64,000 nucleotides of DNA from positions 62,001-126,000 of the forward strand of contig NW_026928016.1 in assembly GCF_032062105.1 (NCBI RefSeq), written 5' to 3'. Shown here piece by piece: positions 3,469 through 59,466 of this stretch. Below the pieces are notes generated by a model. It was not told the DNA's origin. It saw only the letters and a program-made list of their open reading frames with translations, and did no database searches. Numbering within the stretch: position 1 is the first letter of the stretch; each line of letters opens with the position of its first letter. Origin of the DNA: Saccostrea cucullata. Its lineage: Eukaryota. The position numbers were made by a program, and so were the translations under genes.

Positions 3469-4021
3469 TAGCTGCAGATCTGTTACAGTAGCTCTCTGAA
3501 AAAAAATATATATAGATACATGTAGACTGGAGAGCTACAGTGCCACCCATTGAAAAAACTATATTTATTGCACACAAAAATGTGTGCTCCGTTCTCGATT
3601 TATTTCTCCATGTTTTTAAAACTGTAATCTCAAAATATAACTAACCCTATGTTCCTAACATATTCTTTCACTGTCTCCACGACCAAACATTCCACATAAT
3701 TATTGTTAATACCGGTAGTCCTCATGACCCTGATATTGTAATCATAGAATATTTCGCTTATTAACACTGCCATTTTGGTTCCAAAGTTAATTCAGTCCAA
3801 TATGCTTTGTTCAGAGGTCAACTGCGAGAATACTTGATAGAGGAGAAAGGAATTTTTTGAAATCTTCCCTTTTTTGCAATTGAGGTAAGAATTTGGAAGA
3901 ATTAATCAAGAACCGAGCGCACTTTTTTGTGCGCAATAAATATACAGTTTTTTCAATGGGTGGCACTGTAGCTCTCCGGTCTATCAATATATTTTTTAGG
4001 AGAGCTACAGATCTGCAGCTA
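3469..4021. mobile_element. MITE with ~110-bp TIRs and TA ends (copy 1)
   Basis: TAGCTGCAGATCTG...GAGCTACAGTGCCACCCATTGAAAAAAC is mirrored at 3925-4021. A second copy in the opposite orientation lies at 56259-57679. Confidence 0.85.
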
Positions 4022-6358
4022 GCACAGATCATCTACATGTATGTTACCTTATTATAGATAAAAATATTTGAAATGCATGTATCTCAGAAATACATGTATG
4101 GAGTGACCATAACAAATCCTGAACAGTTTTTATATCCTCTTTAATAAAATACATGGTAAAAAAGGGAGTTACTGTTAAGATTTAAGAAAATATAATATAT
4201 CAAATATTATATGCATGTATCAAATATTATATCAAGACAATATATGTAAAATAAAATGTTTTAATCACTAAAGATACACTGACAGAAAAGAAAAAAATAC
4301 ACAAACATATATTCTTGCCAACATATTTCCATAATTCAAAATCTTTTGAAATTTCTTGGTTAGCTTTCTTGAAATTATCTAAAATACTCTTTATGACTTC
4401 AACATAAATCAATGCTATTGATACTTTTATTTCAATCTGAATTTTTCAACATATGGTAATTAGTTGCTTTACAGCATATTATTTGAATTTGAATGACTTG
4501 TTTTCCTCAATAAATGAAAAGTGCATGGCATTCACGTTTTTTGCAAATTCAATTTTTGCAATTTTTTTAAAACAGGTAAGCTGCTTGATCACAAATCAAG
4601 AAAAATATATACCAGTACTGTAAATCACATATTTCACAGTACACAACATGTAAATGGTTTACTTGAACATGTATATGAAAATGCATGTATTTTTACATAT
4701 AGACATTTCATATTATGCAAAACCACACATTTGTCTAGTATCTTGAATTAAATTATAGACATAATTTCAGAATCAAACTGATACCTTTTTACTGTCTTTC
4801 CACTGATTTTCCACAACGTTTCACATTAAGCAGTAAATGTACAAGATGTTATACATTTTTAACATCTGAATCCTAGAAATTAAATTTTGGACTTGTGAAC
4901 ATATTTCTTTCCCAACAATAGTAATTAAAGGCTCACTTCCCAATGAAATCATGAGAACATAAATTAAAGAATGTAACAATTTTGGAGGATATGGCCAAAT
5001 GATTTGGGCTTTGGGAATGAGGACCATATACTTAATAATTCACAATCTTTTTGTGAAATTCAAAATGTTCAAAAGTTTATGACTGAAAGAAAATTGACAT
5101 CCGATTTTAAGGGTGTTCTTTAGGAGATAAATACAAACATTTACTTATTAATAAATATGCTTTAAAACAAAAAAAAATAAATGTTTATTTAAAATCATCT
5201 TCCAGCTCACCTAATCCAAGATTATTAAAACAATGATCAACGTTCTGTGCAATAACAAAGTGCATTGGAACGATCATAACAAAAATAAAATAAAAGCTAG
5301 ATTCCTTCCATCTCAAACAATTCATTTGGTCAAAAAAGCACCTCAAAACTAAACAATATTAAGACATTTCATTCTGACGAACTGAACACATTGGACGGAT
5401 ATCAGTTAACAACAGCTGCTATTGGATAACCAGAATATTTGAGATGTGCAGCATATATAATACATTCAGTAGTAAAATATTTCACTACTGTATACTGATC
5501 TGTAATAATTTCTCACAACCAATACAGTACTTGACTTGTATTTTAGAACTGGAACTTTGCAATAAAGCATGCTTGCATTATAACATGAGACTCGGCATTA
5601 TGCATGGTACATGTAACAACGTTCACCCTTAAAGAATTCTGTTTGGAAGTTTAGAAAACTGGAATAACCACAGACAAACAAAGTGAAGACAAAGCCTCTA
5701 TAACCACTAGTTTATCATTTAGAGTGGTCAAGGGACTAACAAAACAGAAATGTTAGTGTGAGGATTATATTTCGGATTTGGCTGACATATATGGAATGTT
5801 AAGACATAGTGTATATTTTTTAAAATGATAAATAAAACTATTAAAATACAGAAAGTTTCAGTAAATACATGTATTTGTAAAATATAGGATGAAAATAATT
5901 AATAGTAATTATTTCAGAAAACTTCTTGTTAATGATTAAGGCACACTTATAAAAAAAAAGTCATTTTTGCTGACATAGTCCTTTTTTACTACCTCCTGGA
6001 AACTGATATATAGGAAATATTGTTGGTAAGTTTTTAATAATTTAGATTGATTTTTTTTTCTCGAAAATTAAGTCAAGAGTATTTTAGCACATGTTATTGA
6101 CTTCCTTAAGCTCTATTAAAATATTAGCACAGGTCAATACAGGAGGCAAGTTATATAAGACAAGACACTGATTAGGAGGCCTATAATCAATCTTCATGGT
6201 GTCTACAAGCCTCACATGTACTGATTCATAACAAAATGATTTACAAAGCATAACTTCCTGTGTTTACTAAAACACTATTCATAATGTCTAACTTCAGTTC
6301 ACAATTTTAATGTTCCTTTTTAAAAGTCAAGATACTTCCAGTATATGACTTCTGTCCA

Positions 6359-9300
6359 TTATGTGTTAAAAATAATTTTCAAATGGAGATACAATGGTTT
6401 CACGGTTAACAGCTTGATGTTTTTCCTTTTGTAATCTGCTGGTTTCTGGTATCTGTTAGAAAGGAAATCCCAAAAGTGATATCAGGCATTTCAAACAAAA
6501 GATGTTTGTGAAACACTTATGCCTCCACCCCCAGTCCCTTGGACATACCGTATATCTGTTTTTTTTCGCGTGTTAGAAATTTTGCGAATATGGGGTAGAT
6601 TAATAGTACAGTTTTTATTTTGCGCAAGTTATTTTTATGATTGAAGATTTTTTTGCTTAAAATGGTATTGTCACATTATAGCTGACATTATTTCTGTGTG
6701 TTTTATATTTTGTGACTTAAAAATGGTCACAAAAAATGCAAAAAATAGATCACCGCGAAAAAAAACCAGATACGGTACATGCAAAGAAAATGAATGGAAA
6801 CTGCAAATAAATGAAAGTTTTCCTAAGCCCAAGGGACATAATTCTGTCAAAAATGCTCGATTGTACCCAAAATAAAATATACCTGATATTCTTATGATAA
6901 AGCTGTATACCAAATTTCATTTCACTATTTACAACTTCTGCAAAGAAAATGAACAGAAACTGCAAATAATTGGAATTTTTCTTAGTCAAAGGGGCATCAC
7001 TTTGTCAAACATTATTTGATCATACTTTAATCTGCATGCTAAATTTCATTTTTATGTGTGCAACCTTTGCAAAGAAAATGAATGGAAACTGTTGCAGGAC
7101 CGACAGACAGAAAAAAGCAATGCAACATGCCTTCCCTTCTTCCAAGGGGGACATTATAAACATGAAAAGCTACTTATTACATGCAAAATGACTGAATTTC
7201 AACATATCAAACTGTAATGCTTTTAACAAAAAAGATATATAAAAAAGACATGGTATTATAAAGTTAACACAATACTTTTTTGAGTGTTGTACATTAATTA
7301 CTTACAGTTCTAATGCTACTGGTCCCTCTTTGACTTCATCCCTCTCCATGAAGGCCCAACACTTTGTGCTGATCATGTTTTTCTTTGGTTTAAAATGCTT
7401 GAACTCAAAAAATATTGAAAACCCTATAAAAAAGGAATGAGACAAATTTGATTATATAAGTATCAACATTATCAATAAAAAAAACTTTTTGTTTAAAAAA
7501 AATTACATGTACCGGGTAATACTGCTGACTCAATTCAAGTTCAACTCGTGAGAAAGTGGAGGTTGCTAAAATTGAATATCCCTAACAATTCCTGTAAGGC
7601 CATCCTTAAAAAATTGTTTTTTTGCGGTAACGCGACCGACTCACCAAAATCCACCCTACTGGATTTTTTTTATGGGTTCAAAAAAATTTTTTTTTTTTTT
7701 TTACAGATCCATTTTCTAATTTTATCCTATTGACATTTTTTTACGTCCCCATTGCACCTGTAGACGCTGTTTTTTAAAAAAGAACTGATGTGTTCTGATA
7801 TTTGAACAATAAAAGATTGGATTCATTAAGAATGCCTTAATTTTCTTGTTTGATTAGTAACTTAAAGTGAAATCTAAGACATAGTTAATACCTCTATCTA
7901 ATCGAAATTTAATTCTGACTTTTTGTCTCCAAAAAAAAAAAAAAAATAAGCCTACCTACCTACCCACACCTTAAATGATGAGGCGCGTTACCGCAAAAAA
8001 AAATTTTTTTAAGGATGGCCTAAGCATTAAATTTCTAGGAACATGCATCCTTATATAGTTAAATTTAAACCCTTGTTAAAATTATATATGGATTTTTCTG
8101 GACAATTCTCTAAATTAGGACTCACTAAGAAATAAGTACACTTTAATGTTCAAAAACTTTAAATCTCACTAAAATGAGAAAACTCATTAAAAAGTTTCTT
8201 TTGAATTTTGGTACCAATTTTTGCATTAAAAGAGAATATAAAGAAATAAGGAAAAAGAAAATGATACCCAAAATATCATAAATAAAAACCTCAACCTCTA
8301 AGAATGGAGCTAAACTTTTCAAAATTCATCCATACACTGGTACTTAAAATTACACCTAAGCATTGTGTGTTGAAAACATTGCTAAATACCTGTACTAATA
8401 TACATGTACCATGAACATGATGAAATTATAAAAATAAGATACTAGTAACTCCTCACCTCAATGAATGTTTCCTATAACAAGGCAAATGACTTGTATCAAT
8501 ATGATATTTGAGATGCCTAAATCTGAAAGCTAGATTTTCAAAATAAATATGGGGAAATGGTCATTCTTATTTTTGTATAAATTTGGGTTTTAACAGGATG
8601 AATCTGGAAGATAAGCAGCCCCCTGGCACAGTCTTACAGGTGCTAGTTGAAATGACTTGGAAAATCTATGATTTAGATTTTGAAAATAGGAAAACAAGGA
8701 TTTCTAAAATTTCACATTTCTAATATAGATAAACTACATTTTATCAAAAGCATTTTCAGTTTAATAGGAAAATTTACTCATGAAAATGTTAATGGCAACA
8801 TTTGTGCAAAAAATTGCAGAAACAACTGAGGCAGGTATTTTTTGGAACAAACTGTTAAAAAACAATGAACATGAACAATTGCCCTGCACTGTGGATCCTC
8901 TTGAGGTCTGGGGCTGATGATTTTTAAATTTAGAATGTCTATCTCTACACTTACCATTGGGGAGACTCTCTATAGACTTCTGAATGTGCACCTCTTCATT
9001 AAACACAATACACTTGCTCTCTTTCTTGGTGGCTACTGGTGTATCCTGGGCAGCTGTAAGCTCTGTCCCTGTTGCATCTGCAAATCATCATCATAAACAT
9101 GTGCATATAAACAGTGCTCTAAGTGTATATACATGTATATTTTAAAAAACATACACAAAACTTGACCAAACTCAAATCCAAATGGCTCTACAAGGATAAT
9201 CTTTCATCACGTAGAAATGACACATATTTAATTTGTGTCATATCACTTGCTGTATATAGATACTATGGATTAACATGTGCTTTATATCTAGTGCTTTGTG

Positions 9301-12300
9301 TATGTAGCTCACCTCTCACTGACACAGTTATATAAGGTTCTATGTACTGAGTGGCATCTTTTAGTCCAATTCTCTCTATTTTAACTGTCAGTACTCTCAT
9401 ACCACTGTATGCTAGAGGTCTGGGCAGCAAGCTTCCTTTTGCTAAGATAAACAAACCAAACGAATTCTTATTAGATTTTATGTAAATGTATATATAAAAT
9501 TCATGTAAACATCTCTTAACATATACAAGGATCAATACGGCACATGATTTATGTGGTATGATTTCAACAGATATAATCCAAAAATTAAGAGTTTTGATCT
9601 AAAGCTAATATTCTGTCTTTGTTCTTCTTGAAAAACTTTTTTTAAAGATTTTTCCTTTAAAAATTTCCCTTTGATTTAATATGATTTTATCCTAAATCTG
9701 AGGTCATAATTTGAACAATATGAAATAACCCAAAATTGTGATTTCTTCATCTTGTAAAATCTATATATAAGTTAACTTCATATACTGTATACAGGGTTAT
9801 TTTCGCCATGCTTTGTTTTAGCCTTTTCACACTTGTAAACAATTTTGCCCCATCTTAAATTTGCCTAATCACAGTTCCGTTTAAGAAATTATACTGTATT
9901 CTTTGAATTCGTCCCGTTTTAAATTCGCCCAACCAAGGTAAGGGCGAAAGGGGCAAAAATAAAATGGAGGTTAAATTTCCCTGTATACATGAAGTTTTTA
10001 TTCAAAGGAAAATTTATTAACAATTCAAAGAATATATTCTGCATTTCAATAAAATTAAAAATGCTTTTGAGATAGAAAACTTCAGCCATAGAGTAGAAGA
10101 AAAGACTTGTAAATAGTCTTGGAGTCAATAAAGCCCTACCTCTAGATCACTGTACTTATTCTGGGAGTCAATAAAGCCCTACCTCTAGATCCCTGTACTT
10201 AGTCTGGGAGTCAATAAAGCCCTACCTCTAGATCACTGTACTTAGTCTGGGAGTCAATAAAGCCCTACCTCTAGATCCCTGTACTTAGTCTGGGAGTCAA
10301 TAAAGCCCTACCTCTTGATCACTGTACTTAGTCTGGGAATTTATAAAATATACCTCTAGATCATGTACTTAGTCTGGGAGTCATTAAAGCCCTACCTCTA
10401 GATCACTGTTTTTAGTCTGGGAGTAATAAAGCCCTACCTCTAGATTTATACCAGTCTGGGAGTCAATAAAGCCCTACCTCTAGATCCCTGTACATAGTCT
10501 GGGAGTCAATAAAGCCCTACCTCTAGATCCCTGTACATAGTCTGGGAGTCAATAAAGCCCTACCTCTAGATCCCTGTACTTAGTCTGGGAGTCAATAAAG
10601 CCCTACCTCTAGATCACTGTACTTAGTCTGGGAGTCAATAAAGCCCTACCTCTAGATCACTGTACTTTAATAGTCTGGGAATTTATAAAGCCCTACCTCT
10701 AGATCCCTGTACTTAGTCTGGGAGTCAATAAAGCCCTACCTCTAGATCACTGTACTTAGTCTGGGAATTTATAAAGCCCTACCTCTAGATCACTGTACTT
10801 AGTCTGGGAATTTATAAAGCCCTACCTCTAGATCACTGTACTTAGTCTGGGAATTTATAAAGCCCTACCTCTAGATCACTGTACTTAGTCTGGGAATTTA
10901 TAAAGCCCTCTAGATCACTGTTTTAGTCTGGGAATCCTACCTCTAGATCCCTGTACTTAGTCTGGGAATTTATAAAGCCCTACCTCTAGATCACTGTACT
11001 TAGTCTGGGAATTTATAAAGCCCTACCTCTAGATCACTGTACTTAGTCTGGGAGTCAATAAAGCCCTACCTCTAGATCACTGTACTTAGTCTGGGAATTT
11101 ATAAAGCCCTACCTCTAGATCACTGTACTTAGTCTGGGAATTTATAAAGCCCTACCTCTAGATCCCTGTACTTCGTCTGGGAGTCAATAAAGCCCTACCT
11201 CTAGATCCCTGTACTTATTCTGGGAGTCAATAAATAACCTCTAGATCACTGTACTTAGTCTGGGAATTATAAAGCCCTACCTGTAGATCATATACTTAGT
11301 CTGGGAGTCAATAAAGCCCTATCTAGATCCCTGTACTTAGTCTGGGAGTCAATTGCCCTACCTCTAGATCACTGTACTTAGTGTGGGAATTTATAAAGCC
11401 CTACCTCTAGATCACTGTACTTAGTCTGGGAATTTATAAAGCCCTACCTCTAGATCCCTGTACTTAGTCTGGGAGTCAATAAAGCCCTACCTCTAGATCC
11501 CTGTACTTAGTCTGGGAGTCAATAAAGCCCTACCGCTAGATCACTGTACTTAGTCTCTTAGTCAATAAAGCCCTACCTCTAGATCACTGTACTTAGTCTG
11601 GGAGTCAATAAAGCTCCTACCTCTGGATCCCTGTTTATCATCATCCACTTCATCACTTTCTTGAACTCTGAAATAAATACAAAAATCATTTACATCATTT
11701 ATCAACTTTAATTGCAACAACAAATTCACACCCTAAAATAATCTAAGATGTACTGTGAACAAAGTCATGAAATGAAATCCCCATCAAAAAAAAAAAAAAT
11801 GTTCAATTCAATTTTAAGTGCGACTTTGAACCTTGCCTAAAATACCTTTGTTAGAACAAAAATGACACCTCTTCTGGTGATAAGTTATCTTTAAGTTAAA
11901 TGTGGGGACATCAAATGTTTCTCCATAAAAAAATCTAGACTTGCCATGAACTTTACACATGACCTTTGGTGAAAATCATGACAAACTTTCAGGTCATAAC
12001 AATTTTCGTACTAAGAATGTGCTTCTGAAGATTTTCCATTACAAAGTTATAGCCTGGACAAGAATTCTATAATCTTCCTGTCAGTGACCTTGAACTTGTT
12101 GGAATGACATTCAATCAAGAACAAGACACACTCTGTGCTAAGTAAGAGCTTCCAATGATTCTGTATTAATCAAAGAGATATAATTCCGATGTTTTGGCTT
12201 TTTCAATCTCTGTACATAGTGTGAGTTTCCAAAGGTTTTCTTTTAGAGATGGCTCAGAATTTTGGAAAACTTTTTTCTGACAGTGACTTGAACTTGCTAA

Positions 12301-15300
12301 AATGATTTTGGGTCAAGTTCATTTCACTCCCCTGGGTTATTGGATATCCATAAACATACCAAGTATGAGCTTCCAATAATACTCCATTACAAAGTTAGAG
12401 CCCAAACAAGATTGCACGGACAAAAAACAAGATGATTTCTTTATACTGAATAAAGTGCCGCACCACAGCATGATACGCCCATCAAAAAAATACAATTTTC
12501 TTGAACAGTTTAGCCATGCAAGAAAATCACATCAACCTTGATTCTAAGATTTCCAAGATTTTTCCATTCCAGACTTCAAATATTTATCCATTCCCTGTGA
12601 TGTAGGCATTAATTATAATAAATATTACATCACTGATAGATTTGAATTTTTCTATGCTGGTTGTGTTAGACCTTGTCAAATGTCCATCATACTAAACAAT
12701 ATCAAATTAGTCTTAACACCTTAATCTATACCAAATTAATTTCGAAAAGAAAAGGCTGGCCACCAAATGACATATGCTATAAACTAGGGATGTCAACGAA
12801 TATTCGAATATTCGAATATTCATTCGATGAGTTGATATTCGAATATAAATTTATAATTCGAATATTCGTTTTTAAGTATACAAGCATTAAAAAGAGAGAA
12901 AAAACTGGAAAGTTTTATTAGAAATTGAATCAAGTTTGTAGAAAGAAAAAAAACACTCCTTTTGGATTACCTTAAAGGTGTGAAGTGTGTATCTAAGAGT
13001 AATTTATTTATTTGTTTACTTAATTAGTGGTATAATAGTGTCCAGTATTAACAATCAACTTTGTATTGTTGTAAGGACCCAGTTTTACAGTAAACACACA
13101 GACTTCTTGTTAATCTAAATATCATTAAAAATCATAATCAGGAAATTATTATTTTCAAAAAGTAATTGCTTTTAATATTTCACCATTAGATAATTGTTCT
13201 GCCTGGTATAAATTTGTAGGAGTTATCAGTGCAGACTTTAGTAAGACGATCAATTAATCTGGAACATACTAAAGAATCTTTTGAATTTTCAAAAAAAACA
13301 AAACAACAATCATTACATTTTGGATGTATACTATTCAATGATTTTAAAAAAATACATAATTGTAGTGCATATTTTGAACTCTACATGAGTTTTTATTCCA
13401 AAATAATGGCATAAAACCTATACTGTTTGACAGGAGAGTGAAGATATATATTTAATAATGCAAGATGTATTTATTTTATCGAATATTCGAATATATTCGA
13501 ATACTCCTATCGAATATTCGAATATCAATTATTGACAATTTTGACATCCCTACTATAAACTGACCAGCACTTCTTCTGTCTAACCCCCAAAGGATACAGA
13601 TAAGACTGCTTGATCCGAGTGATTGAGACAGCTGGCCTTCCTACATTGAACTCATTAATTAATCTTTAACTGGATGCTTGTCTACTCATTACTACCAAGA
13701 GATGAATGGGTCTGCACTATCTACCATAATTTTTTTTTAAACATATAAAATATTCTCAGATTTTTTTTGGTTGAGATTTAATGTCCGACAGGTTTTAATA
13801 TGTAATTCATATGGACATGCTGATTCCACCCCCACCCCCATAAAATTAGTTTTTAAATTAATAATATTATATAAAATCAGATTAGTCTATTATGCAATAT
13901 CAAATTAGTTTTAATTACTTTTCATCAAATTTTAAAACTTAGGCTAGCCAACAAGAGCTATTTTTAATCCAACAGGCTTACCCATCTGCCCAATACCCAA
14001 GGGATATAGATAACACCGATGCTCTATCAGTTAGATCCTCACACTCAAAACTCATTAATTTCTCTCTAATTTGACATGCAAATTTCTGTTATCAAAATTC
14101 TTCTTGGCCAGTGCTTGATAATTACACTCAAGGGAGAGGTAGGATTTCTCTAACATACATTATATTTGTTATAGATTGCTGTCAAGTATATGCTTAAAAA
14201 AATAAGTACATGTACAGTGGACCCTCATTTATCCGGACGCTTTGGTTCCCAGTCAATTTGTCCGGATATGTGAAGCATCCGGATATCTGAATCACCAGTT
14301 AAACAAGACAGAATAACATTTTAAAATTTCGTTCCGATGAAAAATCGTCCGGATACTGAAGCATCCGGATATCTGGCGTCCGGATATCTGAAGGTCCACT
14401 GTATTTTCTTGATTTAACACTTTTTTAATAAGGACAGTGCAATACTCTTACATTATTTGGGATACTTAAATGAATAGTAATAAGACACATTTTTTTTTTT
14501 AAATTTCACTTAAATTAAAGGTCACAGAGACCTTGAAAAAGGTCGCGACACACCTTCTACCAAAGATGCATAAACTGGTCAAGTTTGATGATTGCAAGTC
14601 TTATAGTTTTCTAGTTATGGGCCGGAAAGGATTTTTCCATATAACTTCTTAATAAAAGGTCAGAGTGACCTACTTTTTGTGCACAACACACCTTCTACCC
14701 AAGATGCATCAGATGACAAAGTTTGATAATCCTAGGACTAATAGTATTAAAGTTATGAGCCGGAAACGAAAAAGCTAACAGACAGACGGACAGACGGATG
14801 ACACGAAGCCTATAACATAATACGTCCCGTCTTAAGACGGGCGTATAAAAATCACATATTTTCATAGGGTCAAAATGTGTGTGGTTTGAAGAAAAACTAT
14901 GGGCTCATAGGGATTTGATTTGATGAAGAATTGCTTAGTAGAATGGTTGTGTTTGGAGTGTTTACCTGTTCTGTGAGCTGGGAATGGTTGTGTTTGGAGT
15001 GTTTACCTGTTCTGTGAGCTAGAAATGGTTATGTTTGGAGTGTTTACCTGTTCTGTGAGCTGAGAATGGTTGTGTTAGGAGTGTTTACTTGTGTTTATTT
15101 GTTCTTTGAGCTGGGAATGGTTGTGTTTGGAGTGTTTACCTGTTCTGTGAGCTGGGAATGGTTGTGTTTGGAGTGTATACCTGTTCTGTGAGCTGGGAAT
15201 GGTTGTGTATGGAGTGTTTACCTGTTCTCTGAGCTAGAAATTGTTATGTTTGGAGTGTTTACCTGTTCTGTGAGCTGAGAATGGTTGTGTTTGGAGTGTT

Positions 15301-18300: not shown

Positions 18301-21300
18301 TGAGACTTTTTTTGAATGATACTACATGTAAACTCTCCTTACCCTCCCGTATTCTTAAAAACATATACATATTATTAGTTACACAGTCAGTTAGTGACCT
18401 AATACGGATTCATACAGGGTCTGAAATGGAAATCCGTATTGGGCGAGATGAAGCCGAGTCCCAATACGGATTTCCATTTCAGACCCTGTATGAATCCGTA
18501 TTAGGTCACTAAATGACTGTGTTATGAATTTATCCCGCTGAAGACCTTTTTCAATATAAAAAAAAAATATTTGTGCATATTATGAAAATATTAAGTTTTA
18601 ATCCAATGACAATCAACATAAAATATCGTTACGGTAACAAGAAATTTCACAAAACTACCTACGTAAACCGTTTCTTAGCCACCATTTTTATTTTCAATAA
18701 CAACGCATCGAACGGAGTTGCATGCCCGATTTTCATATTACGCCTTGACGGAGAAGTAATACGGAAAATTGTGATTAGCTTTTATCCAATCAGTAATCGA
18801 CAAATTTGTCTGAAGCGGGGTAAATATATATACACCCCTACTTATGTTATTGTGATTTAAATTCAAGACACGTGGGTTAGGTTTACCTATTCAAAGGTTA
18901 TAGGGTAAAACCGGTTTTATGAATAAAATTGGCAGTAAACAGGAAATTGCTATAGTCTGTTTTTTCTGAAAACATGTCCTGTGAAAAATGTGTTTCCAGA
19001 ACTTTCTGAGACTTTCATGATTTTCAACAGAAATGGGAGGCTAAAAGGGGTGGGGGTGTAAACAAAAATTAATAACACCTTATCATAGATTAATGCAAAA
19101 ATTACAGCTCAATAGCGACCGATACGCTGGTAAAACAAAATGTATAATTATCATCTACACTGACAAACCTTTGTTTGCCTTATATGGCTGTTGCTATTAA
19201 TGCGCACAGAGCATCTCACCACGAGCAATTGACCAATTGTTGATTGAATACGTTTACGCCAAATACATGTTTACATGTTTACTTCGAACACGTGGTTCAG
19301 GTCAATCTGTGAACATGTCAATGGAGTGCAAAATAAAAAAGAATGTTCTAATGAACAAAATACAAACATTAAAAGCTATGAAAGATATCAAGGGGCTCAC
19401 GGGCGTTTTTAATTTGTTGTTACATTATGTAACTAGAGAAAGATATGTTTCATAAAATGTATACGTAGTTAGTGTCAAGTTCAGAATACCTGCACTTCAA
19501 GGGTAAGGAAAACAAGCAGCTTCTCGTATGCATTTATTAATGGACAAAACATTTTTTACATAACTATGCTCGTGATCATGTGTGTTGGCCAGGGAATCTA
19601 CCTGACAATTGTATTCACCGATGGTACGATAAAGGAATTTATAAAGCGTAAAATTCCTGTAGTATTCGTAGTAACCCATAATGCAATTCTCATTCAGCTG
19701 ATTTGTCAGTTAAAGTCACATTGGTGCCTCCTTTGCTAATCTGACGCCAAAAAATATAGTCCCGGTTCCCATGCACAATATTTGTCCAAAAAGAAATTTA
19801 ATCCATGACAGCAGAAAATTGTATCATAGAGAATATTATAATTTAAACTTGAAATAATTCAAGAGAGATCTACTGAGGTATATTTCTACAGAATGATATT
19901 ATATGGTGGTGAAAACTAAAATGCAACATAACTTTTCTGTTTACCATGTCTCCCCGTGCTAGTCACTTCCTAGCCACATTTCCGTGAATAATTTACCCTA
20001 TCTCACTGAAGGCTCACTAACTCTCGCCAGAGCCACTGTCAGAGCTACTTTGAACTCATTGGGTTTTATAATTTGCAGAACACCAAAAAAGAAAAGGTTC
20101 CGAACACATTAGTAGGGGTGTTAGTGAGCACCTTTGAGGAATGTTTACCTGGGTAGAACTCACGTGACTATAAGTATTTTAAATAATTTATTCCACACGT
20201 GGGTTCAACATAGGTCATACAGGTAAATAGACCTCACTTGCTATAGGAAAAACACTACTTTTTGTACATTTCTAATATCCTAAGTAACAGTTTAATCGTG
20301 TACAAATTTCCTACTTTCACACAAATTTTACAAATGTATTATGCGTCTTTTGTCATTCGCACAAGTTTGTACAAAATAAGGCTCATAGTAAACAAAAGGT
20401 TTTAAATGAATGACCGTTCTTGATTTACTATAGAAAATCACAAATGTCGGATGACCCCTGCCACATTCTATTGTTTTGTTCTTTGTATATTCGTGGATTT
20501 CAGTGGTAAAATTTGTTGAATCGTACGGTTTAAATTTAAATTAAAGATTTGGGATGAAAAAGTTTGCTTAACTTGATTGTTTATTTTTTCACATTTTACC
20601 GGGGCCCATAAGTGCACTCGTTCTTTATAGGACCCTACAGCTAAATCTGTTAAGCCACAATCTCTGTGATTTTTGAACCCTTTGAATACATCACTGGCTC
20701 AATTAAAGTCCATGCATTGATATAATTAAATATAAAAGACACTAATGTGCATTTGTTTAAAATGAAAATTGAAGTTCAAATTACTTTGTAAAAAAAAATT
20801 TGCATCATAGCTAGAAATGAAATTGAATTTAATTAACAATTTTACTATCCTTTTTGCAAGGTTATATACTTAATCCCCTTTTCCTGGTCATTGGACTATA
20901 TATTAATTCCTAACGACACCATCACATGAATAAGAATTTTTTTTAGTTTAAATATTTTTGAAACTTATCTGGAATAAGTAGAAGCCTAATAACACTTCCA
21001 TTTCATAAGACTGCGTAACTGGAAATAATTTAATTGGATATCTACCATGTATAATCGATACACAGAGGAATGGAGGAAATTAGAAAAAAAGACGATCGTT
21101 TTAAAGATTTCACAAATCATGTAGTACTGGTAAATGGATTAGATGAAGGGTATTTACGAACAATAAGACCATGTTACTTTTATTTATTTAATTGATTGGA
21201 AGTTTTAAAGCAAAAAACATGGGGAAAGAGTCTGTTTTCAGTAAGGGGACTGAAACGGTCCTGCATGCAGATGTTTAATTCGCCACATGGGAGAACAAGT

Positions 21301-28085: not shown

Positions 28086-31000
28086 ATGTTTCCTCCAAGT
28101 TTTCCTGAAAACTTCAACGCACAAGAGTGGAAGGGTATATTTGTTCAAGCTCTTGAAAATGTAAGTCCAGGAATACGATTTCGAAGTGTTTATATTCATT
28201 TTGAATGCATGACATATTATATTAAACTAGTTATTGTATCATGGGAGGTTGGTATGAATATGAACATGATGTTGTAAGGTTATTTGATAATTTGAAAGAA
28301 GTCCAACACAACTAATCATCTCTTGTAATAAAATCATTAAAAATAGTCGGATGTGTCATTTTACCACCCTATAATCATGATAATGGCTAATGACAAATCA
28401 TTTTGGATAATGATTTATCCTTTTAAAGTATTTTAGTGGTTGCATGCAAAGATTTCTGCAAAATCAAACAAAAGAATCTTGAAAGTAAAAAAAACTTAGT
28501 TGTTGCAAAGGTCTAGTTGGCAATGTAATGCACAAAGGACCAATATAAGTAGTTAGAACATTTTTAAAAAATGAATGCATTTTACCTGCTTTAAAGATAG
28601 AATTTGTCCAATGTGTTGGCAAAGTAGAAAAGGTAAAAGGAGTTTCACTCGGGTCCTTGGACTTAGTTTTTAAGAAGATTGAGTCCAAGCGAAATTTGAT
28701 GTATTCACAAAATAATGTGAAGTCCCAATTAGCATTGTTTCACTGCAGTGTTTATCTTTTTACTCTCTATCCAAACAGCAATAAAACCTCTTTTTTACCA
28801 TGTTTCATCATGTTCATGTAAAATATTATGTAGAGGTAACCATTGAGCTTTATCCCCAAATTCAGGCATATAAATTAATTGATAAAATAAGTATCCTGAC
28901 CCCATACATTTGTTTGAATTCAATTATTAAAAGAAAAATCCTGCTATTGTGATCATAAGAAAATAATTTATTAAAAGTGTTCAAGTGTACGTAGCACATG
29001 TTGTGAAAAGTATTGCTTATTGTTAAGGTAATTTGTATGTAACTAATATATTTTATTATACTTATAGGTTCAGTACCAAGTTCATCCCACATTGATAGCT
29101 AAAGCGGATGCTTTGGAGTACATAGAAAGCCTGATCATAAGTCTCCTGGGAACGTTGTGTGCTGCCCAGCCCCACACAGTCCAGGATGTCACGGACAGAG
29201 TCAACAAGACCTTCCCTGATCCGATCGATAAGTGGGCAAATAGGGATGCGAATATTGCTCTGGAAAAGGGCAAGAAGAATTCCAGTATAGTGCTTCCTGT
29301 GGAGAAAATTCATCAGGCTCTCATAAAGGTACTTTTCTTTTTAACTGATGAAAAATCACCCCAAATTTTTTTTAGTCCTGTTCAGCCTTTCATAATCATG
29401 CACTCTGGATCTGGTCAGTTTTCATGAGACTGTTGCTGTCCAGGTTGGATAAATTATACTGTATATAAATAAACAAATAAAGTTAACTCCTATCACTTGC
29501 CTACAGAATGAATAGAATGGAACATGGTTATGGTATGAATTTTTAGACAAGTATGGTTTGCATGCTGCAATTATGGTCTTTTTCTGTTAATTATTATTTT
29601 AATAAAGTTGATATTTATAACAGAATTAAATAGCAGATATGAGATTCAAAATTAAAGTTATATAGAAACAAAATTTTTCAATGCATGGCAGCCAGGATGT
29701 ACAGGGCTTATTGACACTGACAATGTTATGATTTTTAAAAAAAAAATGAAAATGTCTGCAAGTGCATCCACATTTTAAAGTTTTTTTGTAAACAAGTTTA
29801 ATTAGTATTTATTAAGTCAGAGTGCACTCGCCCAGGGTACCAATGTTAGTCCATTAGTCTCTTACTAATAAATTGATTGGAGTGGATAGACATCACTTGA
29901 CCAATCAGCAATTGTTTTTCATGAAATACGATTTCTGTGTTTGGGATTATCTTGACTTTTTAATCTTGGGTTATGAAAAAAAAACAAAGACCATAAGGTA
30001 ACAATATACCATTCTATGAATAGCAGAATGAATATGTTGAGGATGTAGATTTGCACTTCAATGTTGTGGTCATAGTTATTATGAAGTTATGAAGAGAACA
30101 TTCTAAACTAAGAATGGTAAAGCAATCTTCTTACAGATTTGATTCAAATTTAGTAAAACTTGTTTGACAGGTAGACTAATATATAGAAAAAATCTCATGT
30201 TTAGAAACATGATGTTGTCAAGGGTATAAAAAAATAACAATCTGTGACTGAAAATCTTTCCAAATTGTATGCAGCCTACAGTTATAGACTTCAGTAAAAC
30301 TTTGTGCAAGATAAGAAAACCTTAGTCTTAAGATACTTGTATATAAATGTTAAATTTACAAAAATGGGGGCATTTAACTCTATACAGTAGAGCTACAATC
30401 TCATCAGAGATTATCTTTTGTAGAAAGACTTTGTCACAGTACAAAAAGGTGCAATTAAAAACTTAAAAGTGTAGTACATGTAGTTGAACTGTCGAAAGAG
30501 AAATAAGTTTGTCAGATCAATCTAAAGAAAGAATTGTTTATGTAAAGTGTTGGGTTTATATTACTAGATACATGAAATATTGATTTTGATCTTTGTTGTT
30601 TACAAATTGAAGTTTTAAGTTTTCAGAAAATACACAATATTTCATAACAGAAGCCTTGAGATAAACATTTAGATGTCACATGTTTATTGACACACAAAGA
30701 TAAAATAGACATTACAGAACTGTACTTAAGAGGGCAGGATGCTAGTAGTCTGCATAGGAAGGTTATTTTGTCTTATCAACTGCTACAGTCGTTGTGGTTA
30801 AATAGTTGTAACGTATAAACTTCCTCTACATCACAAACGTAGGTCGGGGCTGTACAGGGAGATAATGCAGTGTAAGGTCAGCTGTGACGTGTGACCTACT
30901 TATGACAGTACATGGACCACTTAGCTGGAGAGAGGACTGCTATGTAGAAAAAATATAAAGAATGTTAAACATCTGTTTACATTTTTTTTATTAGATAATG

Positions 31001-34000
31001 TACCGGTAGAAGATGGAGTTAAAACTGTCAAATATTTATTTATTTCATTAGTTTACTACCAAAATTATAACTAAAATAAAAAAAGAAAGGATAGAATCTT
31101 AATCACTATATTATTTACCGTGGTAAGTAAAATGGGAACTGTCTAGTCCCTAAATTGACAGACTTTGTATAAGTACAAACAGAGTAGAAGGCATGAACTT
31201 TGTCTTAACTCGATCAAGTAGAAGCACAATGAATCCAAAGGGTAACACTGTTTATTTTTCTTGGTGATTTACAGTAAACTACTTCGTCAGTAGGCTGTGA
31301 CATGATGTTAGACTTGTATCTGTGCAGGTGCATGAAAGAAGAGGGGTCCTTGGTTCTCTTTGAATAGTGGCTGAATCAGAAAAGGATGTTTTGAAAGCAG
31401 AATGAAAGACAGGCTCTTTTTGAACATGATTTAAGTTGAAAAATGACCCCAGATTTGATCATTCCTCTCTCTTTTGGTGCCCTGCATAAGGGACACATAG
31501 CTTTCCTATATTGTGATACTTTAAACCAACTATTATTCCCGAGTTGTCAGTTTGAAATTGATTTGCAAGGATTAATTGTCGTGACTGAGGAAACATTCTC
31601 TTTTAGTATAAAAACTTAATAAATGGTTTGGAGTGATTAATATTCTCGAGTTAAAGTAAGTCGCGAAACTAGTCAATAGTTTTCGCTCGTGAATAAGAAC
31701 AGTTTACAGTGTAGTACTTTCGCACCAATGTCCACTGGCAAACATTTTACATATCTCATTATGCCCATTAACTTATTGATAAACTAGTGTTTACCACAGT
31801 ACTTGCTGTGAGGTCACAGCCAAGGTCAAGGTTACAGAGAACATGATATATTTTCTTTGATTTAATTTCAGCTTGATCCCCTTTTAATCTTTTTATTCTA
31901 GAAGTCTGATTGATTTTTGTTATAACCACTATGCAGTATATATGCAGAATTAATGAAAATTGTACTCCCTAACCCTGCATGAAAATAGTTGAAGCACAAG
32001 TCAGAAAGTATTATTTTTGTTTTTATACCTAAAGAAATAATGACTACCTTCATCATGTTCATTCCTGATTGTCTTTACTTGCAGGATGTCCTGGGCTACA
32101 AAATTGAGCATAGTGTGACCTTGTATATTGTGGCTGTACTAGAATACATTGCTGCTGATATCCTAAAGGTAGGTCTGTCTGTATGTTCATCCTCAAGGTC
32201 TGTCCAGGAAAGAGAGGGGCTATGTTTAAAAGTTTCTTAAAATTAAAATATGCATTAAAATATGTTCCATAGCATTTCAAAAACATTCAAGGCATGAATT
32301 ATTATCAAAGAAAAGATATCCTAAGTATATGTTTTAAGCTCCTTTTCACCCATTTTAGTATTAAAAGGGCATATTATTAATTTTGATTTGGAAAGTACTT
32401 TAAATGTGTTACATTTAGCGGTGTATTCTTTACACATTTTTGGCAGAAAGCTAAATCCACTAAATCAAGTACATCACTAAATGACTTGTAAATCAAACAT
32501 TTATGTCTAGCACATTGAGATAGCGTTTAATCAAATCTATGCTAACTTATAGAAAATTTAATTTCTGCCAAATATTATACACACCAAATTTAATACATTT
32601 ACAGTGTGTTGATTATGTTGATAAAGGAAGATATTTAAGATTTACACATACTTATCACATACTATACTACAGTACTTAGTAGGGTTTTCATTGGTTATTG
32701 TTGTATAAATATTCTATTATATGTGTCCAGTTCAGATGACAAGTTGTCCTTTGTTTATTAAATATGTATAAATGTGAAACAGTAAACATATATATACACA
32801 ACACTATTGATCGTGTATGCAGTCATGTATATTTTTGTTTCAATAAAGACAAATTGCATCATCATGTCTCAAAATCGTTGTAAGCTAGACTTGAGTGATA
32901 TTGTCAGGAATCTCAGACAAAGTGGATATTAATCTGTTGATATAGAGGGACTGTAAATTTATTATAATGGAATTTACCTGACATTAATATGAGTTCCACA
33001 AATAGGAGGAAGTTATGGCTACCCTACTCAGTGATGAAACTCGTAGGTTTCCTCATGGGTCAAATTAATACCTTAAAGAAAAGGGTAATGGTCATTTACT
33101 TTGTTGTAATGTGTGAGCTCCAGTAATATTCTCATATGATATGTTACCTTTGTGTAAATGGAGTTATTTCAATGCATATTTATATTATTATTTACATGTT
33201 TCTTTTTTTTAATAGCTGACTGGAAATTATGTGAGAAATATAAAGCACACAGAAATCACATATCAGGACATCAAGGTGGCAATATGTGCAGATCAGGTAT
33301 CTATTTTTCTAAATAACCACTTAGTTAATCAGATGAATTTAATTGATATTTATCTTTATAAACTACCAGTACTTTTCATAAAAGAGAAAACATGAACAAG
33401 CTTTGTGTATAAAATTACACAGTGGGGACAATTTTACAAAAACTGAAAATTGTGTGACATTGAAAATCTGATGTGCTGAAATACACAAATAAATGATTAG
33501 CAATAAATATTGTCTGGAAAAAATATTATTTCAGAAGTTAATACTATGTTTATCTAGATATTTCAAGAAAAAGTATTTTAAGACAAAAGACAAGGCTACT
33601 TCATTTTACAAACAAACTGACTGACATGATTTTGCTTTTGTACAAACCCATTACGTACAAACCATGGAATGCAATAATATCACAGCTTAAGTCTGTTTTT
33701 GTTCTCTGTCCTGTGTACAGGTGTTGATGGACATGTTTTCCCCGGAGGAGGACGTGTCCCTCCCTCTGGTGGAGGAGCCTATTGGTTTGAGGACCGAGGC
33801 TCAGTCCTATGAGGACATTGTTAAGGATTTCATCTTTGAGGAGACTCAGTACATGAGGGACCTCAGCCAAATCATTAAAGTTTTCAGAGCTCCCTTTGTT
33901 AAGCATTTTCCAACCAGCAAGGTAGAACATATTCAATGATTGTAATTCTATACATTGAGTGGCATAAAAGTTATTTAAGGTTGTAATATGTTTTTATGAT

Positions 34001-37000
34001 AATTAAAGGAATCACATCATCCATCTGTCTGCTTTTAAACACTTTATTGTGACATGATAACTCAAAAAGTTTTCAAATTTTTGAAAGAAATATTTTAGTA
34101 TATACATGTATATGTTATTATCATAAGAACAAGTCACCCATTACAATATAATTGGCTATTTCAGGATCTGGAGATAATATTCAGCAATATATTGGACATT
34201 TATGAGTTTACAGCCAATCTACTGAGTTCTGTAGAGGAGCAGGTCGAGGTGGCTGCTGAGAATGAGACGCTGACTGTAGGAATCAGCTTCCTGGACATGG
34301 CAGAGGTAGCAAAAAGTGGAGGGGGAGGGGCGGTTATCTTTAACAGGGGAGGATCTGTTATCATTAACAAAAGTCAATTATATACTGTAAACCAACTATT
34401 ATTCCTGTCATCTTTAATTCGCGATTCGTCAGTTTGAAATCAATCCGCGACAATTAATTTTCGCGACTAAGGAAATATTCTCTACAAATACTTTTAAAAA
34501 ATATTGGTTACCGGCGATTAATTTTTGCGAATTCAAGGAGGTCGCAAATATTTCTCGCACATAAATAAAAGTTGGTTTACAGTATTGCACTAACCGAATT
34601 GTGTAACTAATGAACATGATTATTTCTTACTAGACATTTTTTCTAGTATGGTGTGAAGTGAAAGGAAAACAAGTGTTTGTGTCTTTTTGAGAAAGATCTG
34701 GCAGATAAAATTATAAAAAAGAAAATAACATTGTATGGTTTGTAGGAGGAGGAATTCAGTGTTTATGAGAAGTATGTAGATGATATGTTATCTCCAAGAG
34801 GAAAGGAGAGACTGTACACACTGATGCAGAGAGATGACCTTACGAGAACTCTGGAGGTCAGTATGCAACTACACAAATTACTTCCTGTGTAGGTTTTGGT
34901 CTTCTGTATAAACTGTTGTACGCTTTTAATTGGTAAATCTAAAATGTATTATAATTTTTTATGTAGGATGAGGGTCATGGATTCAAAGATGCTGTCAAAT
35001 ATGTCTTGCCAAAGCTGCTACTAGGGCCAATATACCACTGTCTTCATTATTTTGAAGTCATTAAGGTAAGGAACATGTACTCAACAAACTCTTCACTTCT
35101 TACTTCAGCTACATGTAGCAAAATAGTCATAAATGTTCATGTTTTAAGAAAAAAAGCTAAAGTCTTAAGTTTTGTGTTATTGATGTTTCTCAGGGTTTAA
35201 CAAATGTGAGTCAAAATGAAGAAGATTTAGAGTTTCTGGAACAGGCCAATGGGTTACTAGCATCATTACGATCTGTTTTGGAAAGCCGGATAAAAAATGG
35301 CAATCTTCCCAGAACAAAACCCTGGTAAGAAAATTATATCTCTGTATTAAAGAAGGTAATTACCTGAAACCCTAAATTATGACATTCTTTAAGTCAAAAT
35401 TTAATGTTTAAATGCCATTTAAAGAGGCACATGCGAATAATGGCTTGATACTTTATGAGATATCCCAATGCAGTACCTATAATCTTGTCGTTGTAGGGAG
35501 ACGTCACTGAGATTACAAGGCAGGACTGGGATTCAACAAGTTGTACAAAAGATGTCTGAACTACAGAAAAGTATAGATGGATGGGAGGGCAAGGATATCT
35601 GGCAGAGCTGTAGTGAATTTATTCTGGGTATGTACAGTGTTTTGTGTAGATGTGATATTGCAAAGTAGTTTAGTCTAGTACATGAAATATTGTACAATGT
35701 TCATGTAAATGTATTTGTCAAAGTAAAAGTAAATTCAGGAAAAATGTAACACACCAAGTAAATGTGAAACAAGATCACATCACCCAAGTTCTGATTTCTT
35801 TGCATTGGTTGCCAGTGGAATTCCGCATCCAGTATGAAATATTAATAACAGTATTTAAAGCACTGCAAGGGACGACACCGTCATATATAAAAGACCTTGT
35901 TAATTTTTATTTCCCTTCGAGATCATTGCATTCAGAGAATTCCAGGTGTTTAGTTCAACCTCATGCTCGAACCAAGTCATATGGAAATCGTTGTTTGATG
36001 TTAGCGCAGCTGCACTCTGGAATAGTCTCCCATCAGTTATGAGACATGAACAAAATCTTAACAGTTTTAAAAAGTGTCTAAAGACTCATTTCTTTAAAAT
36101 GGCTTTTTATCATTGACATATAAATATTATTGAAATTTTTATGTTCCTGTCTAAGCACACTTTATGGACTCTTTTTATTTTGTAATACTATTTTATGATT
36201 TGTGGCTATTTAGTATCTCAATTTAATGATGTACCGGGTACATAGTTGTGCCTACTTTCACAATTTTAGGGGCTAATTTTTAGATAATTTTTATAATTGT
36301 TTTCATTACTTTTCTAACTATATGTCTAATTTCAGATTCTTAATTATGTTCCAATTATTGTATATTTTTATCTTTATTTTTAATGTTTAAGCGCTTTAGA
36401 GTAATTTTAATTATATTTAGCGCTATACAAATTTATAATAATAATAATAATAATAAATGACTTTTTAAAGCAGGTTCGTACACTGAATTAAACCTTTATT
36501 GATCGAGTATGTTTCAGTCTTATAACCATGTCTTTTTAGATGGAGTTCTCATGAAACATGCCAAGGGAAAACCAACAGAGAGACATGTGTTTCTGTTTGA
36601 CGGTCTGATCATCCTGTGTAAGCCAAACATAAAGAGATCTTCTGTAACCTACCCCACGGGAGACTTCAAACTGAAAGAGAAGTTCCACATCCGTAAAGTG
36701 GAGATCAGGGACAAAGAGGACACAGATGGTAGGTTAATGAGCTCACTAGAACTGAATGCTCAAGTGAACTTCTTGGATCAGAAAGTAACTGATATCTGTC
36801 AATCTGTCATGCGAAAATCATTCAATTCATTACTCTTAGGGGTAGGGCAAGGTCACAACAGGGGATCAAACTTATAGATTACAAAGAAATTTATTGGAAA
36901 TATCTTTTTTAAAAAATCTCTATAATAGGAAAAATATTGAAATTAAGGTAGGTCCGTACTTTCAGAATTTTCTGTCAAACTGTTTATTTTTCGATTTGAA

Positions 37001-55046: not shown

Positions 55047-57355
55047 ATGAATCCCCTTTTCCCAGTTTCATCAAAAAACACACTTTTTCCATTAAATACA
55101 GATGAGAATGATACAACAACTACTAAGAATTTGGATGGTCAGTGTTTCAATTTTTTTTAGTGCTAAACATGTAGAAGTTTTCATTTGTTTACCAGTTTAC
55201 ATGTCATTTCAAATTGTTTACATCTTCTCAACTTAGAATATGATATGATAATCAATCCTACCAATATAATGCATTTAATATGAGAAAATTAATATGTTTT
55301 TCATTGTACATGTAGCCTGAGTTAGACTCTAATGTGAATTACCGGTACCTTTTTTTAAAAAAAATTTCAGTGAACTTGGACTGGTTGCAGAACAAGAGTT
55401 TTCCAAGCAGACAGTTTGATGTCACGATATTACAAGGACCAAAGGAAAAGGAGAGTGTGTCAAACCAGTAAGAAAACGATTTAGACCCGTTTCTTTGATT
55501 TATATTGCCTATGTTTTATATCAAGACTTATAAATACTTAAGCAACTTTTTCATTTAGGGTGCATTTACTCCAGCATGCTAGAGGATTGAGGTTCACGGC
55601 AAGATACTTTTGACTTGGCGCCTCTAGCATCCATTATAGAAATTCTCTTTGTAGCTGCAGAACTGATGTGTTGTGATTTTTTTATTTTTGTCGTTGACCA
55701 TAAAGCTACAGATACCATAAGCAAATAATGTGCAAGTTTATGGCACAAGAGTTTCTGTGCATGATTTGGGAGAATATTTCTCCACTTTCCAGCATTGGTC
55801 CAACAACTGTCTTTTGCTCCCTAATTCTACACACACTTTTTACTAAACTATATATTTTATCCACCTCCCAAAGCTTTTATATTTGTCAAGAGAGTTTATA
55901 AGTCTGTTGACAAATTAAGCACGTAGACAGTTATATCATAACAAAAATTAATTTACATGATTGTATAACTTCTTATATTAAAGAAAACTTTGATATTACA
56001 TTCTTCATAATCATGATATTGGACTTAGACATTCTGTGACAAATATGTTGATTCATTTTATTACAGAGACATCCTTGAATCCTCTGAGGAGACACCAGAT
56101 GAGTCAAACACTAAAGGTTCACAATTTTCTCTTTTTTCTCCTGTATTTATACAACTCCTACAGTTACATATAGATTACCAATCAGTCTCTATTTATTAGC
56201 AGGATTTTAAAAAATTAAACCGGAAAGGAATAATGTGATTTCAGTATTTCGTATTACCTAGCTGCAGAACTGTAGCTCTCAGAAAAAATATATATTGATA
56301 GACCAGCTGTAGACCGGAGAGCTACAGTGCCACCCATTGAAAAAACTGTATATTTATTGTGCGCTCGGTTCTGGATTAATTCTTCCAAATTCTTACCTCA
56401 GTTGCAAAAAAGCTAGATTTCAATATAGTCCTTACTCCTTTATCAATTACTTTCGTAGTTTACATCTGTATACGAAGCGCGTCGGACCGAATTATCTTGC
56501 AAACCAAAATGGCAGTATAAATAGACGAAATTTTCGATGATCACAATTTCAGGGCCAGGAGGGCTATTAACCAGAAGTCTCTGTCGAGACTGTAGCTCTA
56601 CTGGTTTGTACTGATCAAAAACCGATGCACAGAATTATGTATCTTAGTGTAGTCTACTTGACGTGTGATAAGTTATATTGAAATCAGACCAAAACTGTAG
56701 AAGGAGTAGCATTTTAAAGGAATTCCACAGAAAATTCTACTCTTAGTAACCATGGCAACACCGTTCATTGAAATCAAAAACCGATGCACTATTATATGTA
56801 AATTAGTGTAGTTTACTTGTGTGCCAAGTGATAATGAAATCAGACCAAAACTGTAGAAGGAGTAGCGTTTTAAAGGAATTTCACAGAAAATTCTATTTTT
56901 AGTAACCATGGCAACATCGTTCATCGAAATCAAAAACCGATGCACTATTTTATGTATCTTAGTGTAGTCTACTTGTGTGCCAAGTGATATTGAAATGAGA
57001 CTAAAACTGTAGAAGGAGTAGCATCTTAAAGGAATTTCTCAGAAAATTCTATTTTTAGTAACCATGGCAACATCGTTCATCGAAACCAAAAACCGATGCA
57101 TTATTTTATGTATCTTAGTGTAGTCTACTTGTGTGCCTAGTAATATTGAAATCAGACCAAAACTTTAGAAGGAGTAGCATTTTAAAGGAATTTCTCAGGA
57201 AATTCTATTTTTAGTAACCATGGCAACACCGTTCATCGAAATCAAAAACCGATGCACTATTTTATATATCTTAGTGTAGTCTACTTGTGTGCCAAGTTAT
57301 ATTGAAATCAGACTAAAATTGTAGGAGGAGTAGCGTTTTGAAAAATTGTTTACAG

Positions 57356-57393
<38 letters not shown>

Positions 57394-59435: not shown

Positions 59436-59466
<31 letters not shown>

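Follow-up and report, generated by a model that had tools for sequence, protein, structure and literature searches.

Introduction

Transposases of the Tc1/mariner type make their 5'-strand cut within the element, and bases of the element stay on the donor (PMC7351741, PMC2874221); Sleeping Beauty cuts 3 nt inside (PMC7351741). For Tc1 of Caenorhabditis elegans, taCATGta is a known but rare footprint (PMC3520976, citing Eide & Anderson 1988), and 78% of somatic events in the worm leave one-ended 4-bp scars (10.1101/2025.10.09.681459). The pogo element Passer leaves footprints of 0-4 bp (PMC9976928), and hAT transposases form their hairpin on the flank (PMC5499845, PMC6900584).

We analysed 64,000 nucleotides of contig NW_026928016.1 of Saccostrea cucullata (the window), from an assembly of 1.17 Gb in 23,869 contigs. 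A preliminary description of the window had located short palindromic insertions at TA, among them three compared with related copies and called (a), (b) and (c) below, and had read them as transposon excision footprints. It placed all of its motifs correctly. Here we compare these insertions with paralogs, sister contigs and resident elements, and describe a second class of insertion between 5-bp repeats.

Results

Insertions (a) and (b) in a MITE

Cases (a) and (b) lie in one MITE, which the preliminary description began at 3481 and which actually spans 3469-4021 (Table 1); 22 of the 23 copies of its family having both ends found carry a 9-bp TSD. Neither (a), nor (b), nor the third 6-bp insertion at 3483-3490 occurs in any of 28 other genomic copies. 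The extra bases of (b), noticed earlier against a second copy in the window, are therefore derived, and 33 of 34 paralog alignments have a 6-bp gap at this point. Those of (a) are derived too, but one of the three arms used as its controls carries an 11-bp insertion of its own at the same site (56299-56314). Paralog alignments at (a) showed a net gap of 6 bp in 53 of 75 cases and of 8 bp in 18, because the adjoining A/AT tract differs as well. An exact-flank pattern search for the site gave 4 matches, none with TACATGTA, and the sole further copy that has it is the sister contig of that very locus (L002). The second copy of the host MITE (56250-57680) is interrupted by a HINE-like element with a 156-bp satellite, and the satellite-bearing repeats of the window are similar to bivalve HINE/Pearl elements (PMC7492417).

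Table 1. Scars, candidate scars and MITEs located in the window.
Position	Feature	Strand	Comparison or remark
3469..4021	Host MITE, TAG...CTA ends	.	553 bp = family length ~535 + three 6-bp insertions
3483..3490	Third +6 insertion, left arm, T+TACAGTA (one-ended CAG-type scar plus one base)	.	
3517..3524	Scar (a) TA-CA-TG-TA, TACATGTA	.	Paralog comparison
3710..3717	Scar (b) TA-CC-GG-TA, TACCGGTA	.	Paralog comparison
5788..5789	Plain TA; C8258 carries TACATGTA	.	Sister-contig alignment
6548..6775	CCG...CGG MITE, TA-flanked	.	
7504..7518	Compound scar TA-CATG-TA-CCGGG-TA	.	Common to C8258; not polarised
8411..8424	Candidate ATGAA-CATG-ATGAA	.	Not polarised
9574..9575	Plain TA; C8258 carries TACCGGTA	.	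Sister-contig alignment
14207..14214	TACATGTA; second TA is the MITE insertion site	.	Paralog L132 has plain TA
14215..14401	CAG...CTG MITE, 187 bp, TA duplication, very young	.	Copy identity
21690..21699	Scar (c) TA-CCC-GGG-TA, in 147-bp satellite unit	.	+8 vs two neighbouring units
28371..28384	Candidate ATAAT-CATG-ATAAT	.	Not polarised
28804..28817	Candidate TTCAT-CATG-TTCAT	.	Not polarised
32049..32062	Candidate TTCAT-CATG-TTCAT	.	Not polarised
34385..34582	CTG...CAG MITE, TA-flanked	.	
41392..41571	Second CAG...CTG MITE copy (41400-41571), inserted at second TA of a TACATGTA	.	
46833..46859	Scar cluster: TACACATGTA (46833-46842) and two TACATGTA	.	8 bp of TACACATGTA missing in organism B
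47074..47081	TACCGGTA	.	6 bp present in organism A, absent in organisms B and C
47897..48104	CTG...CAG MITE, TA-flanked	.	
56299..56314	Second-class scar TAGAC + CAG-CTG + TAGAC (+11 bp), copy B of host MITE	.	

Satellite units

Case (c) is indeed longer than its two neighbouring units, as had been described, but the wider satellite family is variable at that spot, with a net difference of 8 in 24 of 66 alignments and of 6 in 27; (c) is therefore the least clean of the three cases. No CCC..GGG element to match it had been found in the window. Other parts of the genome do contain such elements, bounded by TA (L353, 2353 bp; L073, 136 bp).

A gapped pattern for the 156-bp satellite retrieved 111 units that are longer by 3-16 bp within a 29-bp interval. 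Among the 100 of these that were listed and counted by eye, 13 contained TACATGTA, 5 TACCGGTA and 4 TACAATGTA. The cores sit at five or six different TAs and, several units being copies, amount to ~13 independent events. Within the listed units, 16 of 23 insertions of 6 bp were two-ended, none of 12 insertions of 4 bp was one-ended, and 1 of 11 insertions of 5 bp was a possible TACCGTA. Eight small insertions at a single TA start with C, and all of them were two-ended (CATG 3, CTAG 2, CCGG 1, CCCGG 1, CATGTG 1). That same TA is occupied in another unit by a 1138-bp CCG...CGG element, and two CAG...CTG elements of 457 bp each lie close to it (among 30 of 35 matches). The pattern for satellite site 4 gave, in 34 of 79 matches, 2 small insertions, otherwise substitution variants, and no full element. 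The CC+GGG core of the compound scar at 7504-7518 recurs in a satellite unit as a polarised insertion.

Abundance of the motifs

In the window TACATGTA occurs 29 times, against 3.2 and 5.8 expected under order-2 and order-4 Markov models (maxima of 8 and 12 over 60 simulations each), and TACCGGTA 5 times, against 0.25 and 0.48; TACTAGTA is not enriched there (2 against 1.35 and 0.48). Over 1.07 Mb, window included, the counts were 315 against 52, 30 against 6.5 and 34 against 14, respectively. Hence the CATG, CCGG and CTAG forms predicted earlier from local MITE ends are all present, the former two enriched within the window, but TACTAGTA enriched only in the larger sample. Compared with shuffles, the TA-flanked palindromic cores CATG, CCGG, CTAG and CGCG (and GGCC) reach ~2.5-3x, and the others at most ~1.7x. 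Among odd-length scars, CA-A/T-TG was found 54 times against 23 expected and CAG-TG 23 times against 23, and TACAGTA/TACTGTA showed no enrichment (305 against 280). The excess of perfect TACATGTA scars is ~246-250 per Mb, and CA-ended elements number at most 87 per Mb by a lenient count.

Two further motifs were enriched. TACACATGTA, a recurrent +8 form, was found 27 times against 8 expected, and TAGGCCTA 37 times against 6.4 in the 1.07-Mb sample; the latter is possibly the scar of GG...CC elements with TA duplications.

Indels between sister sequences

Sister and duplicate pairs were pooled into alignments of 246,850 columns (~247 kb) with 1.9% mismatch in clean windows; some of the pairs are repeat copies rather than haplotigs. 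Outside this count stand L071/L072 (a 99.8% pair), the unalignable extensions C14647/C4294, 18616a, 10467/5282 and 5282/21707, then 5623/20377 and the L340/L341 comparison. In the 247 kb, 8 of 28 six-base indels changed TA to TA(CATG/CCGG/CTAG)TA (P about 6e-18), and random six-base deletions yield a two-ended TA scar in only 52 of 48,000 cases (0.11%). The predicted excess at TA sites is thus large and specific. The predicted indel spectrum was borne out in part: these insertions are over-represented at 6 bp, but the size histogram has no clear overall peak there (31, 28 and 15 indels of 5, 6 and 7 bp).

Counting all lengths, 13 TA-bounded cores in the 247 kb were of the element-end type (CATG 6, CCGG 1, CTAG 1, CAATG 2, CCTGG 1, CTG 2), and two more were odd (CACTTTG, TCAG). 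The canonical one-ended Tc1/Sleeping Beauty footprint was not the main product in this sample: TACATA/TATGTA accounted for 0 of 45 four-base indels, and one-ended forms for 2 of 31 five-base indels, both TACTGTA. Among the 31 indels of at least 50 bp, one was a TA-flanked CCC...GGG element of 2353 bp and one a CAG...CTG element with a 5-bp duplication. End-derived TA scars therefore stand to TA-element presence/absence as 13 to 1. Loci with three alleles, which the preliminary description had suggested looking for, were not found: no element and scar formed an allele pair in the 247 kb, and empty site, full element and scar occur together only among paralogous satellite units of different sub-lineages.

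The long allele is the derived one, as had been supposed, since the insertions are missing from paralogs, and at 47074 the 6 bp are found in neither organism B nor organism C. C8258, the sister contig of window 2.4-15.9 kb, has insertions at two TAs that are plain in the window (Table 1). Public contigs of other organisms were compared over 44640-47450, where we used the 12 best-supported of 65 indel rows; organism B showed its own TACTAGTA-type gain at 47054 and a possible one-ended scar at 47164.

Resident elements and their target sites

At their outermost 2-3 nt, TA-flanked resident elements have the same bases as the insertions; CA, CC, CT, CG and CCC ends were all found. A census of such elements at local loci gave the starts CAG, CAC, CAT, CCG, CCC, CGA and CTG, and CA is the commonest end in elements and scars alike. 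The MITE at 14215 has 2441 candidate copies, and 11 of the 40 scored are 100% identical, two of these being the locus itself and its sister contig. At 14207, comparison with a paralog indicates that a plain TA came first and the scar with the MITE afterwards. Between the window and C8258 this MITE shows no difference, and the surrounding 1.75 kb has 36 mismatches, a pattern of recent local ancestry or conversion. A CCCG...CGGG element has a 7-bp duplication in L336 (2406-9521) and only TA in L353.

A genome search for DDE_1, with 150 matches scored, placed several matches inside TA-CAG...CTG-TA elements, in intact ORFs of 504-606 aa with CENP-B_N, HTH_Tnp_Tc5 and DDE_1 domains. Two of these elements (L133 and L134) are 99.3% identical and occupy different sites. 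Judged by this domain architecture, the putative cognate transposases of the CAG...CTG-ended elements would be of pogo type.

MITE insertion sites prefer A at -3, T at -2 and a purine at -1. The flanks of TACATGTA scars likewise prefer a purine at -1 (p=3e-19) and A at -3 (p=4e-7), but T at -2 is absent (p=0.84), and the 14215-type MITE is therefore not the sole source of the scars. The log-odds of scar flanks and MITE sites correlate with r=0.56. The control palindromes TAAATTTA and TAATATTA had no such flank bias, and a third, TATGCATA (36 sites), had some. MITEs also sit on scar TAs more often than expected, at 5 of 31 independent sites against 0.96% of TAs (p=1e-5).

Insertions between 5-bp repeats

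The insertion in copy B of the host MITE (56299-56314) belongs to a second class, in which CATG or CAGCTG stands between 5-bp repeats. Exactly its 11 bp are missing from 58 paralog alignments, and another copy (L034) has TAGAC-CATG-TAGAC (+9) at the matching site; a full element was looked for at TAGAC and not found. In a scan of all 16 palindromic 4-mers, CATG flanked by 5-bp direct repeats was counted 60 times, as against 8.4 after shuffling, and other cores reached at most ~4-fold with counts of 3-10; CAGCTG occurred 4 times against 0.8. Six sites, one of them in the window, could be polarised by paralogs lacking exactly 9 or 11 bp (CATG 5 of 58, CAGCTG 1 of 4), and the core was invariant across their differing flanks. 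The unpolarised sites mostly have no paralog for comparison, and two are satellite consensus variants. Repeats around the core were direct in 58 cases and inverted in 32, and they follow nTnAn, with T2 or A4 in 64 of 65 against a background of 56%. CATG was not found between 8- or 9-bp repeats, and 6-bp repeats gave a weak signal (7 against 3.6).

Among local TIR candidates with 5-bp duplications, 26 of 40 start with CA, all of them with CAG, and 18 are members of the CAGTCC family, which was fetched deliberately. Its TIR has 410 exact matches, and the nTnAn pattern is seen in 15 of 18 duplications. L366, whose TIRs are closely related, contains hAT domains in broken frames (DBD_Tnp_Hermes below cut-off, hAT RNase-H, Dimer_Tnp_hAT), and its TSD, TTTAT, fits nTnAn. 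The ORFs of CAGTCC copies and their surroundings, considered as a source of the transposase, were reverse transcriptases or had no match and were rejected. hAT elements with CAG...CTG ends and 5-bp duplications comprise L328, L329, L335, L337, L338 and L366; those other than L366 have intact ORFs and mostly a differing target pattern, and DUF4371-type hATs fit nTnAn in 1 of 5 cases.

L328 and L329 represent a hAT of 5 kb that encodes 690 aa in one ORF and has 5-bp duplications. Some 15 occurrences share one score, the 690-aa frame is complete in 10 of them, and on the evidence of these copies the element was probably active recently. Two other hAT elements, L331 and L346, have 6-bp duplications (hAT6-like) and CAT or CAG ends.

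Other features of the window

Exons of an SOS-like gene (PH + RasGEF matches) and of NRDE-2 lie at 29068-45610 and 58330-63384, and all scars discussed here are outside the reading frames of both genes. An open frame of 281 aa at 643-1488 has no Pfam match and resembles what we take to be the tail of a retrotransposon pol gene. A GGCC-ended MITE of 426 bp with a TAA-type duplication, presumably PIF/Harbinger-like, occupies 7597-8021, and C8258 is without any trace of it. At 18374-18529 there is a 70-bp inverted repeat, 94% complementary with a 16-bp loop, and at 45069-45240 a 172-bp segment flanked by 5-bp repeats is missing from an organism A contig.

Discussion

The insertions described here occur at TA with duplication of the TA, their cores are independent of the flanks and equal the ends of resident elements, and their target bias is similar to that of those elements. 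We think it likely that TACATGTA, TACCGGTA and TACTAGTA at TA are excision footprints of pogo- and Tc1/mariner-type elements in which the outer two bases of both ends are kept. The earlier reading is supported to this extent by the specific excess at TA, the derived state of the long allele and the matching elements with intact, apparently pogo-type transposases. Its Tc1/mariner style of footprint holds as a class, but it missed both the two-ended form, which is unlike that of canonical Tc1 or Sleeping Beauty, and the 5-bp class.

An element would insert at TA and duplicate it, and on leaving, its transposase would cut the 5' strand at each end, 2 nt or sometimes 3 nt into the element, producing two non-complementary 3' overhangs such as CA/CA. 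Two-nucleotide CA/CA overhangs are unable to pair, and end-to-end joining with fill-in of both gaps gives TA-CA-TG-TA. End joining would thus have to bridge the overhangs without overlap. The scar (CATG|TA) would itself be a favoured target, and scars would therefore chain and attract new elements. Given that the worm break is mostly one-ended and taCATGta is rare there, repair in this genome would differ. Odd-length CA-A/T-TG scars are not directly predicted from CAG-ended elements. The scars have no evident function and appear to be a mutational by-product, more numerous than the surviving elements.

Because no element and scar were seen as an allele pair, the excision step itself is one that we infer. 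The ratio of 13 to 1 moreover calls for residence times far below the divergence of the pairs. Very short residence is possible for hopping elements, although the young MITE at 14215 is kept in both sister contigs, and the ratio would also fit integration that was aborted. In that case a host nuclease, acting after strand transfer and before gap repair, would trim the element near its ends; 5' overhangs would be filled and ligated blunt to give TSD-CA-TG-TSD, the element would never be inherited, and any superfamily could be involved. Such a course would account for the scarcity of element polymorphisms and of allele pairs, for the predominance of two-ended scars, the natural product of 5'-overhang fill-in, and for an identical CA|TG core within 5-bp duplications. 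Its account of the central A/T in CA-W-TG and CC-W-GG as untemplated addition at blunt ends is matched by CAT- or CCA-ended elements, which could explain odd-length scars, and a TA-flanked CAT...ATG element is known here. Full elements are, however, stably inserted at the same TAs and persist in thousands, and one-ended TACTGTA scars, typical of true excision, do occur (2 in 247 kb). For hAT elements the 5' strand would not be recessed, and a cut at the single-strand junction should leave no element bases. The literature searched, in the parts available, gave no such pathway. We consider aborted integration unlikely. The present data are compatible with both courses, and excision remains, with fair confidence, our preferred explanation of the TA scars. 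Rather unlikely, in our judgement, is the proposal that host repair or defence, not the transposase, sets the scar, with unrelated superfamilies removed at or soon after integration and both target copies left together with the outer 2-3 bp of each end (TA for pogo/Tc1, 5 bp for hAT). If it were true, the TACATGTA sites, in their hundreds of thousands, would testify to insertions that were defeated and not to jumps that were completed.

Template switching or local hairpin repair, which copies nearby sequence, might also create short palindromes at TA; the cores are palindromic, and many of the remaining indels are short local duplications. It is largely refuted by flank independence, the same core appearing in unrelated flanks without a local template, and we regard it as very improbable: cores are confined to those that equal element ends, and in the 5-bp class the core is invariant and direct repeats exceed inverted ones. 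It is just as hard to credit that TACATGTA is a selected protein-binding site of Irx/homeodomain or MYB type. PMC3520976 argues for such a reading in oomycetes, Phytophthora among them, and cites Irx binding, and the motif is contained in PMC11134190, on a MYB factor. Here, however, TACATGTA arises by one-step insertion within satellites and MITEs and is polymorphic between sister sequences, accompanied by the sibling cores CCGG and CTAG, and selection would not explain the motif's origin.

For the 5-bp class we tentatively suggest, as somewhat less than an even prospect, that CAG...CTG hAT elements produced it by the same route as the TA class, which would require a first nick inside the element. 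This is at odds with known hAT chemistry. Since a hairpin on the flank should leave flank palindromes and no element ends in the scar, the class would stem from a nick that these hATs place within their termini, from the action of the host, or from another superfamily with 5-bp duplications. The class would accordingly mean that some hATs depart from the textbook hairpin, or that hosts remove elements by a route undescribed in the parts of the literature searched.

Scars of the TA class constitute a measurable class of mutation; scaled up to 1.17 Gb, the excess of TACATGTA would be ~3x10^5. They preserve traces of earlier transposon movement that escape repeat annotation, can be taken in error for a regulatory motif, and seed new insertion sites. 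Our literature search, which covered neither supplements nor Repbase Reports, returned no account of genome-wide TACATGTA scars in marine invertebrates, of hAT5 footprints or of the 5-bp class, and the available parts of PMC2872659, PMC7008246 and PMC12862219 held nothing relevant to these scars.

Among known systems, Tc1 of C. elegans shares with these scars the duplicated TA, the CA/TG from element ends and an identical taCATGta. In the worm TACATA/TATGTA is common, whereas the scars in this genome are mainly two-ended and inherited, with hundreds in each Mb. Sleeping Beauty and mariner (TA-cag/ctg-TA) share the internal 5'-strand cut that leaves element bases on the donor (PMC5224488, PMC7351741), and two TACTGTA indels were found here, but their TACAGTA/TACTGTA form is not enriched. 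The likeness to pogo (Tigger, Passer) lies in domain architecture, the resident TA-CAG...CTG-TA elements having the same three domains. The resident CAG...CTG hAT elements with 5-bp duplications fit the definition of hAT5, a group named in PMC12730594. The canonical hAT footprint should be a palindrome derived from the flank, whereas the 5-bp scars have an invariant CA|TG or CAG|CTG core. The TA class is thus a known type of footprint, unusual in form and abundance, and the 5-bp class is new here.
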